The notes under the pieces are model-generated. The model made no database searches. It saw only the letters and a program-made list of their open reading frames with translations, and had not been told where the DNA came from. From an archaeon (GTDB lineage Archaea; Iainarchaeota; Iainarchaeia; Iainarchaeales; JAAZKV01), in the NCBI GenBank assembly GCA_041650735.1, contig JBAZKP010000001.1, forward strand, positions 310,754 to 374,753: a stretch of DNA of 64,000 bases. Direction: 5' to 3'. A program made the translations under genes and the position numbers. This document shows, piece by piece, positions 3,073 through 33,477 of this stretch; position 1 is the first letter of the stretch; each line of letters starts with the position of its first letter.

Positions 3073-4139
3073 TTTTTCGCCTTCTCAGTAAACCATATTA
3101 ATAATGATGCGTTCATAAGCCAAGTAGCAATTAAATCGCCCACTAAACCAAAACATAAAATTGCTGCGATTTGGAAAACAACTTCGATTTGGAAAAGAAC
3201 TGAAATAACAATCATTGCTATTAATGCGGAAAGAGTTGTCGCATTCATGGTTAACCCCGTTTTTAGCGCAGAAAAGGTTCTTGAACTTGGGGTTCCGTCC
3301 TTTTCTTTAAGCACTTTTGAGGTAAGCATAATGTTTGTATCAACAGAAGAAGCAACAACCATTAACAATGCTGAAATCGTCAAAAGAGACAAAGGTATTT
3401 GGAGGAAAACCATTCCTGTCATTGCCATTAATACATCAAAAATCATTGCGCAAATTATGCCTAACACAGGGATAGTTTGGCGGAAAAAGATAAAAATAAT
3501 TATGATTAAACAAACCGCTGCCCAGAAAGCAATAACCATTCCTGATGAAAAAGCAGCTTTCCCAAATGTTGCAGAAATACTTCTGTGTTGAAACTCAACA
3601 TTTTCTCCAAGATCAAGTTTCTTAACAAGCACTTCTTTTAATTTATTTGAAAACTCCTCATTAAATTTAATCAAAGCATTTTGAGCTTCAGTTAGCGCAA
3701 CCTTTGCATTTGTGAAATTTTTGTCTTCTGAAGAAAGCAACTTAATTGCTTGGATTGAAAACTGAATGGATTCTTGCTCTTTTTTTTGCATTTCAGACTC
3801 GGAAGCATTATTGTCAGTTAAAGCTGTTTGGGCTTTTTCAATCAGTACTTCTGCTTCCAAAGCTTTTTCATCTTTATTATATTTTATGTAAGCGCCGTGA
3901 CTAGTTGGGGAGTTAATTGTGGATACATCAACAGGCATCCCAAATTCTGTTTCAATAATAGAAGTAACTTCTTGAGTAGATACTTCTTTGTCAAAACGAA
4001 TAATCAAAACATTTCCTCCTGTAATATCAATCCCTTGTTGGATTCCTGGGGAAATAAATACAAAAAACAGTAAAGGAATAGCAAGTATTAATGGAATAAA
4101 CACTACTTTTTTGTAGTTGTTTTTGTAAAAATCCTGCAT
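3069..4139 (-). CDS. secF: Protein translocase subunit SecF (archaeal)
   Basis: GIDITGG, ISATFG, SVDTNIMLT, GLVGDLIATWLMNA motifs; ATG at 4139 preferred over ORF-track start 4175. Confidence 0.9.
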   Translation of the reverse strand: MQDFYKNNYKKVVFIPLILAIPLLFFVFISPGIQQGIDITGGNVLIIRFDKEVSTQEVTSIIETEFGMPVDVSTINSPTSHGAYIKYNKDEKALEAEVLIEKAQTALTDNNASESEMQKKEQESIQFSIQAIKLLSSEDKNFTNAKVALTEAQNALIKFNEEFSNKLKEVLVKKLDLGENVEFQHRSISATFGKAAFSSGMVIAFWAAVCLIIIIFIFFRQTIPVLGIICAMIFDVLMAMTGMVFLQIPLSLLTISALLMVVASSVDTNIMLTSKVLKEKDGTPSSRTFSALKTGLTMNATTLSALIAMIVISVLFQIEVVFQIAAILCFGLVGDLIATWLMNASLLIWFTEKAKK

Positions 4140-4243
4140 AAAAAAACCTTTTTGCTTAGTAATAAATAAATTCAAAACAATTAAAAATGGTCCTAATTGC
4201 TTTGTCGTACCAATTAAAAAAGCTGTTAAACTGTAAATATGTT

Positions 4244-4669
4244 ATGAATACGAGAAAAAAAATGACTATTGCTCAAAGGTACAATGTGTATAAGTTTGTT
4301 CTTAGTGGATTGGTTGATACAGAGGCAGAAAAACAAGCAGGAGAAAGAGCAATAGCAAAATCAATCGCAAGGCACAGGGCAAAAATCAGAAAAATTGAGG
4401 AAAAAGCTGCAAGGAAAATGAAAATTGCTACTGAAAAAAAAATTCTTGTAAATATGCGAAAAGGAACAGCATTTAAAGACTCTGTGAAAACATTATTTAT
4501 TTCCTCCGCGAGAAGACTCTTAAAAGGAGGGATTGCTGCAGAAATTGCAAAAAAAGATTTGGAAGCATTTAAGAAAAAATATATTGAAAATCCAAACAAG
4601 GAAATAAGCAGATTAGCAATAAAAATAGTGGCGGAAATAAAGCAAGAAGCAAAAGAGGGAAAAAAATGA
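4244..4669 (+). CDS. Hypothetical basic helical protein
   Basis: Lys/Ala-rich ORF, stop overlaps the GTPase ATG (ATGA coupling); ATG at 4244 chosen. Confidence 0.55.
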   Translation: MNTRKKMTIAQRYNVYKFVLSGLVDTEAEKQAGERAIAKSIARHRAKIRKIEEKAARKMKIATEKKILVNMRKGTAFKDSVKTLFISSARRLLKGGIAAEIAKKDLEAFKKKYIENPNKEISRLAIKIVAEIKQEAKEGKK

Positions 4670-5652
4670 GTATTAATTTTATTGAAACGCCGCAAGTTCT
4701 ACTTGATGCTGCACTAACAAGAGGAAGAAAAGCTTCTTCAGAGTACCCAAAGCAAAAAACAATTTTTTATACAATAAAGGGAAAAGAAATTGCTAAAATA
4801 GATGCTTCAGCAAATTATCTTGAAGAAAAATTATTCAAAGCAGCACAACAAATGCCTAACTTTGACAGGCTTGAACCATTTTACTATGATTTGTATGAGT
4901 GCATACTTGACCTTGATGAAATGAAAAAAAACCTTTCAAGCATTTCCTCGGTTGCCCGATTGGTTAAAAAAATCAGGAGAGAAGCAATAGTTAGGTTAAA
5001 GGAAATGCGATACGGGGAAGGGATGGAAAAATATGCCAAAGCAATAACAGGGGCTTATATAGGGCGACTTGCTTCCTTGCTCAAAGGGTTAACAAAGAAA
5101 ATTGATTATTACAATGATGTTGCAAAAAAATTGCGTGAATTGCCAAGCATTAAAACACAGGAAGAATGCATAATGTTAGCAGGATTTCCAAATGTTGGGA
5201 AAAGCACTTTGCTTAAAAAAATAACTGAATCAAAGCCTGAAATAGCAAATTATCCTTTTACTACAAAAGGACTAAATGTAGGGTTATTTCATGTACGCTA
5301 TGTTCCAATACAAGTAATTGATACTCCTGGATTACTGGATAGGCCTTTGTCGGAGAGAAACAAAATAGAATTAAAAGCAATAACAGCTTTGCAGCATTTG
5401 AAAGGAATTATTGTGTTTGTTATTGACCCGACCTACGATATGGATAAACAAGAAAACTTATTTGCGGAAACAAAAAAACTTTTTTCAAAACACAAATTTT
5501 TAATAGCAATCACGAAATCCGATTTGGCAAAAGAGGAGCAAATTGAAGAGGCAAAAAAAGTATTCAAAGGATATGAAATTATTGTGGAAGGAAACAACCT
5601 GAATTCACTTAAAGAGTATCTTATTGGCAAAGGAACTCATTTGTTTTCCTGA
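4666..5652 (+). CDS. NOG1-family GTP-binding protein
   Basis: GFPNVGKST (G1), YPFTTK (G2), DTPGLLDRP (G3), TKSD (G4) with NOG1-type N-terminal helical domain. Confidence 0.9.
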   Translation: MSINFIETPQVLLDAALTRGRKASSEYPKQKTIFYTIKGKEIAKIDASANYLEEKLFKAAQQMPNFDRLEPFYYDLYECILDLDEMKKNLSSISSVARLVKKIRREAIVRLKEMRYGEGMEKYAKAITGAYIGRLASLLKGLTKKIDYYNDVAKKLRELPSIKTQEECIMLAGFPNVGKSTLLKKITESKPEIANYPFTTKGLNVGLFHVRYVPIQVIDTPGLLDRPLSERNKIELKAITALQHLKGIIVFVIDPTYDMDKQENLFAETKKLFSKHKFLIAITKSDLAKEEQIEEAKKVFKGYEIIVEGNNLNSLKEYLIGKGTHLFS

Positions 5653-28522: not shown

Positions 28523-28915
28523 CTATTTATTGATAATAGCATCAAGTCTGCCCGAGATTTTTGCCCACTTAAGTTTTTTATAATTTGGGGGCAATATTGT
28601 ATTAATTTGTTCACCGCAGTCAACAACTATTTTGGTGCCTTTTCTTTTTATTTCGCCGCTTATTTCATATCGAAAATTTTGTAGTTGGTTGATTTTTTTT
28701 GCTGGTTTTGATAATACGTCAATATTTAATGGATTTATAAATAACGACACATCTATAATTTTTCCTTCAAGATTTTTACCCTTATTCAAGTCCCATTCTT
28801 TTGAATATCCTAATTCCGTAAAGTCGGGCAGGAAACAATGTACTTGCTTTTTATTTATTTCTAGCAAAGCACTATCGCCGCAGTTAAAAAGTTTTATTAT
28901 TTTTGCCGAGCTCAT
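28523..28915 (-). CDS. Putative immunity protein 3 (paralogue family of the toxin locus)
   Basis: Directly after orphan toxin tip with AGGTG SD; shares CF, YxxxGxI, DCG and GRLD motifs with 29569-30009 and the N-terminus of 30006-30785. Confidence 0.65.
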   Translation of the reverse strand: MSSAKIIKLFNCGDSALLEINKKQVHCFLPDFTELGYSKEWDLNKGKNLEGKIIDVSLFINPLNIDVLSKPAKKINQLQNFRYEISGEIKRKGTKIVVDCGEQINTILPPNYKKLKWAKISGRLDAIINK

Positions 28916-28923
28916 GGAAACAC

Positions 28924-29544
28924 CTAATTTATCCTTGGATATGCTGTTTTTATTGCCGAATCTGTGGTATCAAAGGTTATTATTCTTACATCTATTTCTT
29001 TTTTTAAAGATGGCGAATAGACTTTTTTAACTAGCCTATAAGGGTCGGTTGGGTCTTTGGAAGCAGTTTTTGCTACGTTTTTTATGAAATCTTTAACTGC
29101 TTGATCTTCGTTTGCAAGATTAAAATATTTTTTAAAGTCTGCAGGATGCTTCCCAGCGACAATATGTTTCCATCCACCTTCACTTAAATCAATAACAGTT
29201 GATTCTTCCAGCCAAAGAGTTTGTGTGGCCCCTTTTGTAACGAAATGAGTTGAATCAAGTTTTGCACCTTTTTTAAGTGCTGTTTCCAGCATTTCGTTTG
29301 TTGCTCCAGCATTTTTTAGTTTAATAATTACTGTTTCTCCTTTGGTTGTGAACCATTTTGCTAGGTGTGTTGTGTTTGTTGTTATTCCTTTGCCTAAAAA
29401 ATCTACTTTCATTATTCCTAGTTCTGTTGCTCTTGCGATTCTTGTTCCTGAAATGGCTTCTTTTATTCCAAAAAAAGTCAAGTTAAGGGTTTTACCAATT
29501 TTTGATAATTTGGATAATGAGTTAACTATTTTGAATGCTTTGGC
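28924..29544 (-). pseudogene. Orphan toxin cassette: pre-toxin homology region plus alternative RNase-like tip, no clear start
   Basis: Frame open from 29544 (AKAFKIVNSLSKLSKIG) right after an in-frame TAA; matches residues of the 871-aa protein, then diverges to GGWKHIVAGKH...IKTAYP. Confidence 0.75.
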
Positions 29545-29545
29545 T
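29283..29545 (-). repeat. 263-bp copy of the toxin pre-tip region (partner 31233-31495)
   Basis: Ungapped alignment at offset 1950; about 69/87 aa identical by hand; includes an exact stretch of about 46 bp and one of about 35 bp. Confidence 0.9.
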
Positions 29546-29568: not shown

Positions 29569-30009
29569 TTAAAAGCCATTTGTCCATTTAGTAAAATGCA
29601 GATTTATTCTTCCGGTTGCTTCTATCCACGCCCCTTTTTTAATATTTTTTTCAGTGGCTTTTATTTCAATTGGAAACCCGCAATCCAAAATTATTTTGTC
29701 TTCTGATTTATCCATTACTTGCCCAACAAGTTTGTATTGATTAACACTATTGGCATGTTTTTGAAGGTCAATGATTTTCTTTGTTCCATTTTTGTTTTTT
29801 TCAATTTGGAGACACATAAAGTCAAGAGAAATGTTAACATTAGATCCAATTTCTATATTTTTTATTTCTTGAATATCAAAATAATCGACAAAACACTTAA
29901 TTTTCTGACCTGTTTTTGCTTCGATAACTGCATTAGCTTCAGCGTCCTGCCATGCAGAAATTCTAAAATCCAAAAGTCTTGCCGCCCACCATTTATTCAT
30001 CATAATCAC
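29569..30009 (-). CDS. Putative immunity protein 2
   Basis: Overlaps the stop of the preceding tip (GTGA); IKCFVD, NQYKLVGQV, ILDCGF and GRINL motifs shared with paralogues. Confidence 0.65.
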   Translation of the reverse strand: MIMMNKWWAARLLDFRISAWQDAEANAVIEAKTGQKIKCFVDYFDIQEIKNIEIGSNVNISLDFMCLQIEKNKNGTKKIIDLQKHANSVNQYKLVGQVMDKSEDKIILDCGFPIEIKATEKNIKKGAWIEATGRINLHFTKWTNGF

Positions 30010-30785
30010 TCAGGAAATGCTGATATTACCCGCCCCTCAGTTTTTCTTGCTGTATCGGAACTCATTATCACTCGGATATTTTTTTCTATTCCATTTATTG
30101 TTACTCGTTTTTCAACCATATACTTACCATTAGAGTTATCACATATTGTGCCAGTTTTCAGTACATCTTCAATTACCTTTTTTACTGCTAAATCATTGTT
30201 AGCTAGCTTTAACGCGCTTTTAATATCATTATTATAATTATTAAACACAATATGCTTCCAGCCTAATTCATTGGTTGTTAGATTCACTTCCCAAAGTTTT
30301 GAAGCTTTCAATAAGCCCCCCAAAGATGACTTAATCTTATCTCCACAATATTTTCTATAAATTCCCCAGTTTTGGTGGTCAAGATACAAATCTATTCTTA
30401 CAATGGATTCCACATAATTCCCGACTTTTGCATTACAAAATCCATTTATCCCTATAATGAACCCGCATTCAATGAGCATTCGGTCTCCCTTTTTCTCAAT
30501 CACTTGTCCCACAAGTTTGTATTTGTTTACCGTAGGAGGGTGAGAAAGTTTTGTTATAGAGTTTACTGCTTGCTTAGCAAGCTCTATACTAAAAGGCATT
30601 GCGAATAGTCTAACCTTAATTTTTCCTTTTGGCTTCAAGGCAAGAAATTTTTCCGTTTCACTCGTGTCTAAAAAACATTCTATTTCATTTCCATTTACCT
30701 TAATTATTGCCTCACCTTCAGCATTTTGAAACGCTTTTGATTTGTATGAAAGAAGCTTGACAGTAATTGATTTTTTTAAAGACAT
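30006..30785 (-). CDS. Putative immunity protein 1 fused in frame to a degenerate second toxin tip
   Basis: N-terminal about 140 aa is in the immunity family (IECFLD, NKYKLVGQV, IECGF, VRIDL); C-terminal about 85 aa aligns ungapped to the toxin tip (ALKLANNDLAVK, SSDTxRKTEGR) but QKHH is replaced by NNYN. Confidence 0.75.
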   Translation of the reverse strand: MSLKKSITVKLLSYKSKAFQNAEGEAIIKVNGNEIECFLDTSETEKFLALKPKGKIKVRLFAMPFSIELAKQAVNSITKLSHPPTVNKYKLVGQVIEKKGDRMLIECGFIIGINGFCNAKVGNYVESIVRIDLYLDHQNWGIYRKYCGDKIKSSLGGLLKASKLWEVNLTTNELGWKHIVFNNYNNDIKSALKLANNDLAVKKVIEDVLKTGTICDNSNGKYMVEKRVTINGIEKNIRVIMSSDTARKTEGRVISAFPE

Positions 30786-30861
30786 AAATTCACCAGAATC
30801 ATTGTAATTTTAACTTCAATTAACAACTAATACTATTGATTACTATTAACTTTTATATCCT

Positions 30862-33477
30862 TTATGAAGTGGGGTGAAATGCAGTAATTATTCTACCCTC
30901 AGTTTTTCTTGTTGTATCGGAACTTACTATTACTCTTATGTCTTTTGTTAGACCATTTCTTGAAATTTTTGCAAGAATTTCATATTTACCATCTAGATTT
31001 TTAACAATAGTGCCTGTTTTTACCGCTTCATAAATTACTTCTTTTACAGCTAAATCATTATTAGCCAATTTCAGAGCTTTTTGTATTTCATTATGGTGCT
31101 TTTGAAATAATATGTGCCCCCATCCCCACCCATCTGCTTTGGCAATTCCATCCCCTAGGTAAGCAGTTCCTTTTTGCCAGTTGAATACATGTATAGTTTT
31201 ATTTAAAATTGTACTTCCTTTAGTAATTACTATTTCCAGCATTTCGTTTGTTGCTCCAGCATTTTTTAGTTTAATAATTGCTGTTTCTCCTTTGGTTGCG
31301 AACCATTCTGCCAAGTTTTCTGTGGTTGTTGTTATTCCTTTTCCTAAAAAATCTACTTTCATTATTCCTAGTTCTGTACCTCTAGCGATTATTGTGCCGC
31401 TGACAGGTTTTGCAACTCCTTTGAAGAACAAGTTCATTCCCGTGCCAATTTTTGATAATTTTGATAATGAGTTTACTATTTTGAATGCTTTGGCTCCGTC
31501 GCTCAGGAAGGCAAGAACTTTGGCTGCTTTTGCTGCGGCGCCAAGTTCTGTTCCGCCTACAGGTTCAATCATTATTACTGTGGAAACAACATCAAAACCA
31601 CAGCCAAGAGTAAGAATTCCATCATCAATGCAAGAACCAATGGTTATGAGTTTAGCGCCCTCTATTCCTGCTTCTATGGTGAACGCAGCCCAATCAATAT
31701 CCGTGAACTCGAAAGGAATTATTGTGGAATCACATGAATCAGCATAAGCTAAATCAGCTTTGTCTTCTGAATTAAGTGCTAAACCAGTTTTTGTGATTTG
31801 CATTTCTTGTATTTTGTAGGCTTTGGCCATTGCGTTTGAACAAGTGTTTCCGACATTAATCCTAACCCAGTTAGCGGTTATGGTCCATCCTGTAGTGGTT
31901 TTTACATATGGTGCAACATATATTGCGCAAACACCTTTTTTTGAAGAAACCATTGCGGCATAATTGCTTGAAGAATTAAGTTTTCCAGTAATTTTTATTG
32001 CATCACTCTTATCGCTTTTGTATGCAAAATAAATCCCTGTTTCGTTTACCCCTCCTTCTATGTTCCACTCAATAGAACCAACATAACCAACATCAATGCT
32101 TGAAGTATAATTAGTAACATGAACATCTCCAGGGACATAAGTGCATGAGCCATTATTGCACCCCCCTCCTTTGCAATCCTGTTTCAAATCTTCTTTTTGG
32201 TTACAAGAATTATACCAATAAGCGTTACCATTATAGCAAGCAGAGTAAAAGTGAGAAGTACATGTAGGAGTGGAATTACATGTTCCATTAGAACAACCCT
32301 TTCCTTGGCAATTCTGGACCAAGGATTCTTCTACCTGGCTATTTGAATAACAGTTATCACTACTGCATCCTTTTGAGAGATTTGTTCGTTGTTTATACAC
32401 GTTACCGCTTTTACAGTAATTTGCTCCCCAGCTTCCCGTTGAAGAAGAACCGCATTCATTTTTCTTGCTCTCTCTTTGGTTACAGGAATTATACCAATAA
32501 ACATCCTTGTTATAGCACTGGTAATATTCATGAGAATAACAACTAGGAGAATAATCACACGCTCCATCAGTACAACCGTTTCCCTCGCAATCTTGAATAA
32601 AATTTGTTTCAGAATCATCATTTGAATAACATGCATTATTACTACAACCCCTAGAAATATTTGTTAACCGCTCATAAACATTTCCATTGGAACAAAAAGA
32701 TTCCCACCATTCTCCCTGCTCGGATTCCCCACAGTCTTGCTTTATTTCTTCCATTTGGTTGCATGAATCAAACCAATACAAATCATTGCCAGAACAAGAA
32801 GAATAAGCATGAGAAGTGCATGAAGGAGAAGAATTACATAAACCATTTGAACAACCTTTGTCTTCACAATCCTGAACTCTTGTTTCCTCTATCTGCCTAT
32901 TTGAGAAACACGCTCCATTGCTACATCCTTTAGAAATATTTGTTCTCTGTTTGTAAACATCCCCGTTTTTACAATAATTTTCACTCCAATAACCAGTGAA
33001 AGGGTTTCCGCAATCCTCTACTTCTTTCCAATAATAAAAAAACCCGCACTCGGGAGAAGAAACATAAGAACCAACATATCTTTTTGGGTTACCAATCCCG
33101 CAAGTATAAACACCAGAATCAGTAAAATTTATTCCGAGAGAAACCAAATCAGTTCCTGCAATAGAAGCACAATCACAAGTGCTTGATTGGCATGGTTTTA
33201 CACAGCCAACCAAATTATTTGAAGCAGCATAACAAGTGTAACCATAAGCTCCGCCGCAATCAACAGAACCCTCAGCACTAGCCATGGAAGAACCATTGCA
33301 CCAAACATTGCCTGAAGAAGAAACAGCATAATTCACATGATAAAAAGTCCCATTCAGGTTCATAACCTCATTTTTAGGAATCCCTATTGCGGAAGAAGCA
33401 AATGAAAAAGAAAAAAGAAAACACAAGAATAAAAATAAGAAAGAAATTTTATTAAAATTTGATTTAATTGAACGCAC
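30862..33477 (-). CDS. Secreted polymorphic-toxin-like protein: signal peptide, Cys-rich repeats, beta-sandwich, hydrophobic pre-toxin region, predicted RNase tip
   Basis: GTG start and Sec signal; 93-aa Cys repeats; CGFDVVS...EPVGG...AKAAK pre-toxin segment; C-terminal GWGHILFQKH...GRIITAF resembling BECR/EndoU-type toxin tips. Confidence 0.75.
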   Translation of the reverse strand: MRSIKSNFNKISFLFLFLCFLFSFSFASSAIGIPKNEVMNLNGTFYHVNYAVSSSGNVWCNGSSMASAEGSVDCGGAYGYTCYAASNNLVGCVKPCQSSTCDCASIAGTDLVSLGINFTDSGVYTCGIGNPKRYVGSYVSSPECGFFYYWKEVEDCGNPFTGYWSENYCKNGDVYKQRTNISKGCSNGACFSNRQIEETRVQDCEDKGCSNGLCNSSPSCTSHAYSSCSGNDLYWFDSCNQMEEIKQDCGESEQGEWWESFCSNGNVYERLTNISRGCSNNACYSNDDSETNFIQDCEGNGCTDGACDYSPSCYSHEYYQCYNKDVYWYNSCNQRESKKNECGSSSTGSWGANYCKSGNVYKQRTNLSKGCSSDNCYSNSQVEESLVQNCQGKGCSNGTCNSTPTCTSHFYSACYNGNAYWYNSCNQKEDLKQDCKGGGCNNGSCTYVPGDVHVTNYTSSIDVGYVGSIEWNIEGGVNETGIYFAYKSDKSDAIKITGKLNSSSNYAAMVSSKKGVCAIYVAPYVKTTTGWTITANWVRINVGNTCSNAMAKAYKIQEMQITKTGLALNSEDKADLAYADSCDSTIIPFEFTDIDWAAFTIEAGIEGAKLITIGSCIDDGILTLGCGFDVVSTVIMIEPVGGTELGAAAKAAKVLAFLSDGAKAFKIVNSLSKLSKIGTGMNLFFKGVAKPVSGTIIARGTELGIMKVDFLGKGITTTTENLAEWFATKGETAIIKLKNAGATNEMLEIVITKGSTILNKTIHVFNWQKGTAYLGDGIAKADGWGWGHILFQKHHNEIQKALKLANNDLAVKEVIYEAVKTGTIVKNLDGKYEILAKISRNGLTKDIRVIVSSDTTRKTEGRIITAFHPTS
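31233..31495 (-). repeat. Pre-tip region of the full-length toxin, duplicated at 29283-29545
   Basis: Direct DNA comparison of the two segments. Confidence 0.9.
32140..33015 (-). repeat. About three tandem 279-bp (93-aa) Cys-rich repeats
   Basis: TNISKGC/TNISRGC/TNLSKGC recur at 32929, 32650 and 32371 (279-bp period); CxSHxYxxC...YWxxSCNQ in each. Confidence 0.9.

Follow-up and report, generated by a model that had tools for sequence, protein, structure and literature searches.

The closest described systems are the orphan cdiA-CT/cdiI and rhs-CT/rhsI modules of bacterial contact-dependent inhibition (CDI) and Rhs loci (Poole 2011, PMC3150448; Jackson et al. 2009, as cited in PMC5361080), in which a secreted toxin is conserved up to a demarcation motif and continues into a variable tip. 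In the type VI secretion system (T6SS) of Vibrio cholerae, an incoming module replaces the end of an effector and the old immunity gene is kept downstream, one end of the exchange being homologous and the other illegitimate (Kirchberger 2017, PMC5361080). Here we describe a locus of an archaeon of the order Iainarchaeales in which a displacement of this kind seems to have left an uncommon trace. The window analysed is a stretch of 64,000 nucleotides (assembly GCA_041650735.1, contig JBAZKP010000001.1, positions 310,754 to 374,753), and the element in question is an open reading frame (ORF) of 259 amino acids (aa) at 30006-30785 of the minus strand, which also carries all the other features given below. 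It joins an immunity protein, Imm1, through a linker to a toxin tip, CT2. In our view, a scar of a single recombination event is the most likely explanation of this fusion, rather than a new device.

The likeness to the CDI and Rhs loci is considerable. A full-length secreted polymorphic toxin of 871 aa (30862..33477) is formed by a signal peptide, Cys-rich repeats, a pre-toxin handle and a variable tip, CT1 (about 30865-31233), and the handle ends in the motif ATNEMLE (31234-31254), which is analogous here to the VENN or DPxGL of those toxins. As in them, a small immunity gene stands directly after each tip, start-less cassettes of tip plus immunity gene are found downstream, one of them with a homologous handle, and a cassette of the orphan type is borne on the full-length gene of a relative. 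The locus differs in its DPANN host and in that the toxin, handle and immunity families are without a Pfam or NCBIfam model, the scans of five array proteins against both collections having given nothing above noise. It also differs in that one displaced tip is handle-less and continues the frame of the immunity gene before it, an arrangement of which no description was found in the literature searched on displacement. The downstream tip CT3 is an orphan in the usual sense, being start-less and homologous in its pre-tip region, and CT2 is without a handle and borrows the start of Imm1. With the Vibrio T6SS the locus shares the replacement of a module with the old immunity gene retained downstream. 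There the old effector is usually lost, whereas here, where there is no T6SS, a tip remnant of 85-95 residues survives and lengthens the new immunity protein in frame at its C-terminus. By itself the fusion is a small thing; as a datable scar, it would indicate that C-terminal displacement, familiar from the Rhs, CDI and T6SS loci of bacteria, also takes place in a DPANN archaeon.

The preliminary description of this DNA had reported a single ORF with an immunity-family N-terminus and a toxin-tip C-terminus, and this is borne out: the frame is uninterrupted (the remaining two frames of the same DNA hold 32-33 stops) and both halves are matched. In a HMMER search of 1.84 billion representative proteins, eight proteins that stand alone and measure 135-164 aa match residues 7-141 (the best, P0002, at 44% identity, E=1.8e-24), and such stand-alone members of the family directly follow toxin tips in other genomes. 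The same residues match Imm2, the next immunity protein of the window, with 33% identity (E=1.4e-18), and Imm1 is 36% identical to P0005, the immunity protein of the relative considered below. In the family alignment, nine of the ten invariant or near-invariant positions are kept by Imm1, the exception being the near-invariant Gly before RID, which is Val at residue 129 (30399-30401; VRIDLYL against the C-terminal motif GR[IL]D). Family members stop 2-10 residues past GR[IL]D..L, so Imm1 is a complete member by about residue 138 (residues 1-138, 30372..30785). AlphaFold models it as an all-beta tandem barrel with a predicted local distance difference test score (pLDDT) of about 90, and Foldseek with the whole fusion model gave weak OB/HIN-like matches to the immunity half only. 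By its position, Imm1 is presumed to be the cognate immunity of CT1.

The other half is equally recognizable. Residues 170-258 match the profile of toxin C-termini with E=4e-34, the envelope of the hidden Markov model (HMM) starting at residue 160; we place the tip domain CT2 at residues 173-259 (30009..30269), with detectable homology from about residue 160-170. Against CT1 of the 871-aa protein, CT2 shows 60% identity over 84 residues (E=2.1e-28). The motifs first quoted for it are all present (ALKLANNDLAVK, KTGTI, GKY and IRVI.SSDT.RKTEGR), and the QKHH of CT1 does correspond to NNYN, with the relevant change residing in one position, the second His of GWxHI-x5-H, which has become Tyr184 (codon 30234-30236). 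Across the 20 sequences of the tip-family alignment G, W, the first His, L, V and K are invariant, and the second His is kept in 19, CT2 being the sole exception; CT1 (GWGHI-x5-H intact) and CT3 both retain it, as do about seven further tips from the same order. The other H of the CT1 QKHH is variable in the family (H/N/D/P). CT2 thus keeps GW, the first His (H178, codon 30252-30254) and all the invariant residues other than the second His. Its core is alpha+beta and well folded in the AlphaFold model (pLDDT about 93), without the handle and without the helix and beta-hairpin region that precedes the GW motif in the CT1 model. With part of the fold missing and the second His replaced by Tyr, the CT2 domain is probably inert as a passenger, and so would be tolerated in the cytoplasm.

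Between the two halves lies a linker of 34 residues (139-172; 30270..30371), disordered in the model (pLDDT <50) and of uncertain origin. The whole fusion was modelled as two confident domains with a predicted template modelling score (pTM) of 0.52, and, judged from the pTM and the linker pLDDT, no confident packing of Imm1 against CT2 is predicted. The expectation that the fusion might reveal the immunity-tip interface within one chain was therefore not borne out by the model. Residues 139-154 (NW..Y.GD.I) were considered as a remnant of a toxin pre-tip region and set aside as not significant, since 7-58% of shuffles reach the score, according to the toxin compared (7% for CT1). A 7-mer in another frame at the DNA level, GCTTATT, was not interpretable either.

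CT2 had also been described as closely matching CT1, as a copy of that tip. The homology stands; the closeness does not, since the overall identity is 57% for protein and about 66-69% for DNA (66% codon-aligned), with a synonymous divergence (dS) >1, so that CT2 is not a recent copy of CT1. Its counterpart is instead found in the resident cassette of a relative, the metagenome contig L007, which has about 82% DNA identity over the toxin gene and the layout toxin (P0003), immunity gene (P0005) and gene for a Yip1-like membrane protein, with no orphans. Positions 3271-3886 of L007 are collinear with window 30211-29599, that is, the 3' part of CT2 and Imm2 (74% over 621 nt), and positions 3890-4930 match the Yip1 flank (window 28440-27403). 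The junction of tip stop and immunity start, CCTG[A/T]GTGATT..ATG, is common to L007 and CT2-Imm2, and the end of CT1 diverges from it. Imm2 and P0005 are 61% identical with a dS of 0.55, a value similar to the 0.65 of the toxin N-terminal region. On the collinearity, the common junction and the similarity of Imm2 to P0005, we take CT2-Imm2 to be the cassette type that is still attached to the full-length gene in L007, and by gene order the expected immunity partner of CT2 would be Imm2 and not the Imm1 to which it is fused.

The toxin gene itself points to where an exchange could have taken place. The window toxin and P0003 are 66% identical overall, near-identical through the handle up to ...LKNAGATNEMLE and diverging after ATNEMLE. 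The dS of the handle is 0.27 (window 31234-31860 against L007 2849-3120 and 2219-3471), versus 0.65 in the N-terminal 240 codons. A low handle dS together with divergence after the handle is the signature of a recombination handle, and it suggests gene conversion or a recent exchange limited to this part of the gene. The variable tip is preceded by LK..GATNEMLE in many members of the family, whose N-terminal architectures differ, so that the motif is a VENN-like demarcation.

These observations can be accommodated in one history. The ancestral locus would have had the order toxin...CT2-Imm2, as L007 has it. An incoming CT1-Imm1 cassette would then have recombined into the conserved handle, pushing the old tip downstream in a C-terminal displacement. 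The downstream join, or else a later small deletion or slip of a G run, would have removed the Imm1 stop together with the CT2 handle and N-terminal hairpin, leaving the remainder in frame by chance. Ribosomes starting from the Imm1 ATG would thus make Imm1 with a tip domain carried along as a passenger on a flexible linker, and Imm2 would be retained as orphan immunity against kin still firing CT2-type tips. We consider it rather probable that the Imm1 start yields a working CT1 immunity which drags along an inert, truncated tip with His changed to Tyr, and that Imm2 persists as an orphan immunity. The domain anatomy, the homologies, the uniqueness of the fusion, the lost His and the collinearity with the cassette of L007 are observed; the order of events, the RNase activity of the tip, the loss of toxicity and the neutralisation of CT1 by Imm1 are all inferred. 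An earlier proposal was that the loss of a stop codon had joined Imm1 to a decaying orphan tip. Of that proposal, the accidental join is favoured by the uniqueness of the fusion, the missing handle and hairpin and the lost His; simple loss of a stop codon is not, because CT2 matches the cassette of a working tip in the relative, so that displacement, or a deletion or a slip of the G run afterwards, accounts for the join better.

The uniqueness of the fusion rests on several searches. None of the 26 HMMER matches among the 1.84e9 representative proteins, apart from the query itself, holds both halves, and the tip matches in that scan are C-termini of proteins or short orphans. The fusion architecture was absent from a word search of 5.8e9 sequences, and queries with the fusion protein, including the junction peptide DHQNWGIY, gave no relatives in the scans of metagenome and genome contigs. 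Tip and immunity protein are separate ORFs in all 8 other tip-immunity loci, and no fusion was found in the 12 same-order genomes that carry the toxin. Among the sequences searched, the fusion of an immunity protein with a tip thus appears to be unique.

What the tip does can be approached through its fold. The CT1 tip is modelled with pLDDT 85 and pTM 0.81 as a helix, a beta-hairpin, three helices and a four-stranded sheet. Compared with the PDB, the tip-family profile A7 finds chain C of 7M5F at a marginal E=0.035 over profile positions 33-123, nearly the whole domain, and aligns the LKKG..GWxHIV...H of the family over FLEKG..GLQHIVEEH. This protein is CdiA-CT of Serratia marcescens BWH57, which has the BECR ribonuclease (RNase) fold and for which H47, E51, H52 and R89 were proposed as active-site candidates, H47 and H52 being also contacted by its immunity protein (PMC8616854). 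Both share the motif LKKG..G[WL]xHIV..H and a similar order of beta-hairpin, helices and four-stranded sheet. The His-His spacing is one residue longer in the archaeal tips, and the immunity proteins are unrelated, with an all-beta tandem barrel here and a small alpha/beta protein for BWH57. On the profile alignment, Tyr184 of CT2 replaces the counterpart of H52 and H178 is the first His of the pair, so that the His pair is not intact in CT2. Foldseek with the CT1 tip model against the PDB gave no significant match, and 7M5F was not among the 50 matches listed; the best E was 0.08, for designed NTF2-like proteins, and the CDI tRNases 6cp8_A and 6vek_A stood at ranks 26 and 49 (TM about 0.35, E about 0.4-0.6). 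It is a reasonable inference that the tip would be an RNase with the second His as a catalytic residue. As the only invariant residue lost in the translated remnant, the second His is in our opinion the residue at which tests of the catalytic mechanism should start.

Two side observations concern the same motif. The best PDB sequence match of profiles A5 and A7, weak at E about 0.003, is 6N7M (C. difficile CD630_05490), a hypothetical protein of 110 aa that aligns over the GxxH...AVK region and has, like CT2, a Tyr at the position of the second His of the family. In a distant subfamily of full-length toxins (L012, G176:C23, and L013, G155:C20), the His-His spacing is shorter (GWQHLWKKH), and in L013 the first His is replaced and the second retained (GWIKIWKKH), so that, of the pair, it may be the second His that is more essential.

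Several points weigh against the history that we favour. Judged by tip identity, CT2 is no better a counterpart of P0003 than CT1 is (CT1-P0003 61%, CT2-P0003 59%); only its C-terminal part and the immunity gene mark it as such, and, as the tip tree does not settle the relationship, it is the immunity gene and the junction that support the orthology of CT2 with P0003. The frame of CT2 is open for about 120 codons at 35% GC with the other invariant residues all kept, and its pairwise dN/dS of 0.12-0.25 is not above that of CT1 (0.15-0.24). However, with dS saturated (>1), dN/dS cannot tell relaxed from purifying selection here, and most of the divergence predates any displacement; in favour of our reading, the terminal branch of CT2 has about double the length of the CT1 and P0003 branches (0.73 versus 0.34 and 0.39). 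Because the CT3-Imm3 cassette separates Imm2 from the Yip1 flank, the sequence of events is only partly fixed. A profile E of 0.035 and the lack of a significant Foldseek match make for a weak link to an RNase fold. Lastly, Tyr can be catalytic in some BECR RNases such as RelE, so that a loss of activity in CT2 is not proven.

The in-frame state itself depends on a run of six G (C6 on the plus strand) at 30316-30321, within the linker. With one G less, Imm1 would end at 158 aa (...SSLGAY before the stop), and with one more at 172 aa; either G5 or G7 would leave CT2 start-less, so that the fusion hinges on the length of the run. One rival explanation is thus an assembly or consensus error, or a population variant, at this run, the true state being a separate Imm1 of 158 or 172 aa, a start-less orphan CT2 and Imm2. 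It has the merits that a change of one base brings back the canonical layout, that an Imm1 of 158 aa falls within the family length range of 135-164 aa, and that the source genome is metagenome-assembled. However, the window holds eight more G6/C6 runs, one of them (32161-32166) inside the intact 871-aa gene, and three long ORFs (1775, 871 and 722 aa) run without a break, so the consensus looks sound. Moreover, the 23-residue tail that would follow GRID..L exceeds that of every family member. We regard such an error or variant as unlikely. The same run could also be read as a slippage switch between a plain 158-aa Imm1 and an Imm1 with a catalytically dead CT2, the latter acting as a decoy or dominant-negative against CT2-type toxins of kin, or as a dock for Imm2. 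This we find highly doubtful; if true, nature would here have joined immunity and toxoid in a single chain, giving access to the interface of toxin and immunity protein, or of toxin and substrate, in an archaeal system.

A selected fusion, with or without a switch, would keep the dead tip as a tethered decoy or dominant-negative that competes with CT2-type toxins for their substrate, holds Imm2 or modulates Imm1. An open tip half, well folded in the model with one invariant residue lost, and a dN/dS that is not raised would fit such a role. Nevertheless, no second case was found in the 1.84e9 representatives, the related loci or the same-order genomes, CT2 is joined to a non-cognate immunity protein, its terminal branch is long, the model shows no confident interdomain packing and the in-frame state rests on one slippery run. 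We judge a selected fusion improbable: the self-neutralised or decoy fusion offered earlier as a possibility has no support, the fusion not being conserved elsewhere and the expected partner of CT2 being Imm2. If selected, the fusion would be a naturally occurring chimera of immunity protein and toxoid, but we found nothing that suggests selection. It could also be argued that CT2 is still active, its Tyr being tolerated or catalytic, and that the fusion is a cytoplasmic toxin restrained by Imm2, the two forming an addiction-like pair that stabilizes the locus. The tight coupling of the CT2 stop and the Imm2 start is preserved, the first His and the D and K invariants are present, and the chemistry of RelE mentioned above would allow it, but every other family member examined retains the second His and CT2 is without the N-terminal hairpin region of the domain. 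An active CT2 therefore seems very unlikely to us.

In L007, L008, G051 and five further loci of the same order, the tip lies at the end of a long ORF (about 580-1660 aa) or of a fragment truncated by the contig end, and a small all-beta immunity protein is the next ORF, with a gap of 0-9 nt where it was measured (L007, L008, G051). An immunity-family ORF follows the tip directly in L007, L008, L010, L011, L015, L018 and L022, and in the window after CT2 and CT3. By this gene context, the two families form a pair of toxin tip and immunity protein, with neutralisation as the putative function. The toxin or immunity family was found in none of the 36 genomes of the same genus or family (G001-G036) and in 11 other genomes of the order (12 of 196 with that of the window). 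Because this distribution is patchy, the locus is probably mobile. At L010 (G146:C15, minus strand), two immunity-family ORFs stand in tandem behind the tip of a full-length toxin, and no remnant of a tip separates them; the arrangement resembles an orphan-immunity array in its final state, after complete loss of the displaced tip.

The rest of the window array belongs to a metagenome-assembled genome of 0.98 Mb in 16 contigs with 35% GC. The Hel308-like helicase of this genome shares 66-75% identity with homologues in uncultured archaeal MAGs, Candidatus Forterrea among them, and 46-49% with those in Iainarchaeum and Micrarchaeota MAGs, which places the host among the DPANN archaea. Imm2 (29569..30009) has 146 aa when read from a GTG, its likely start being the ATG at 30003, and it abuts or overlaps the stop of the fusion. 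It is followed by CT3 (28924..29545), a start-less orphan tip with a handle homologous to that of the main toxin, which has the canonical layout of an orphan and holds 3 in-frame TAA codons in its match; its handle is 80.7% identical to that of L007 over 274 nt (blastn). Imm3 (28523..28915), an immunity-family protein of 130 aa, starts 8 nt after CT3 with AGGTG in front, and the gene for the Yip1-like membrane protein comes next. Upstream of the fusion, 76 nt with 21% GC separate the toxin stop from the Imm1 start (30786..30861). This spacer is unusually long, the other tip-immunity junctions of the family being <=10 nt or overlapping, and it contains a TATA-like ATATAAAAG and a Shine-Dalgarno-like GGTGA about 6 nt ahead of the ATG. 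It may be an internal promoter that allows the immunity genes to be expressed independently of the toxin.

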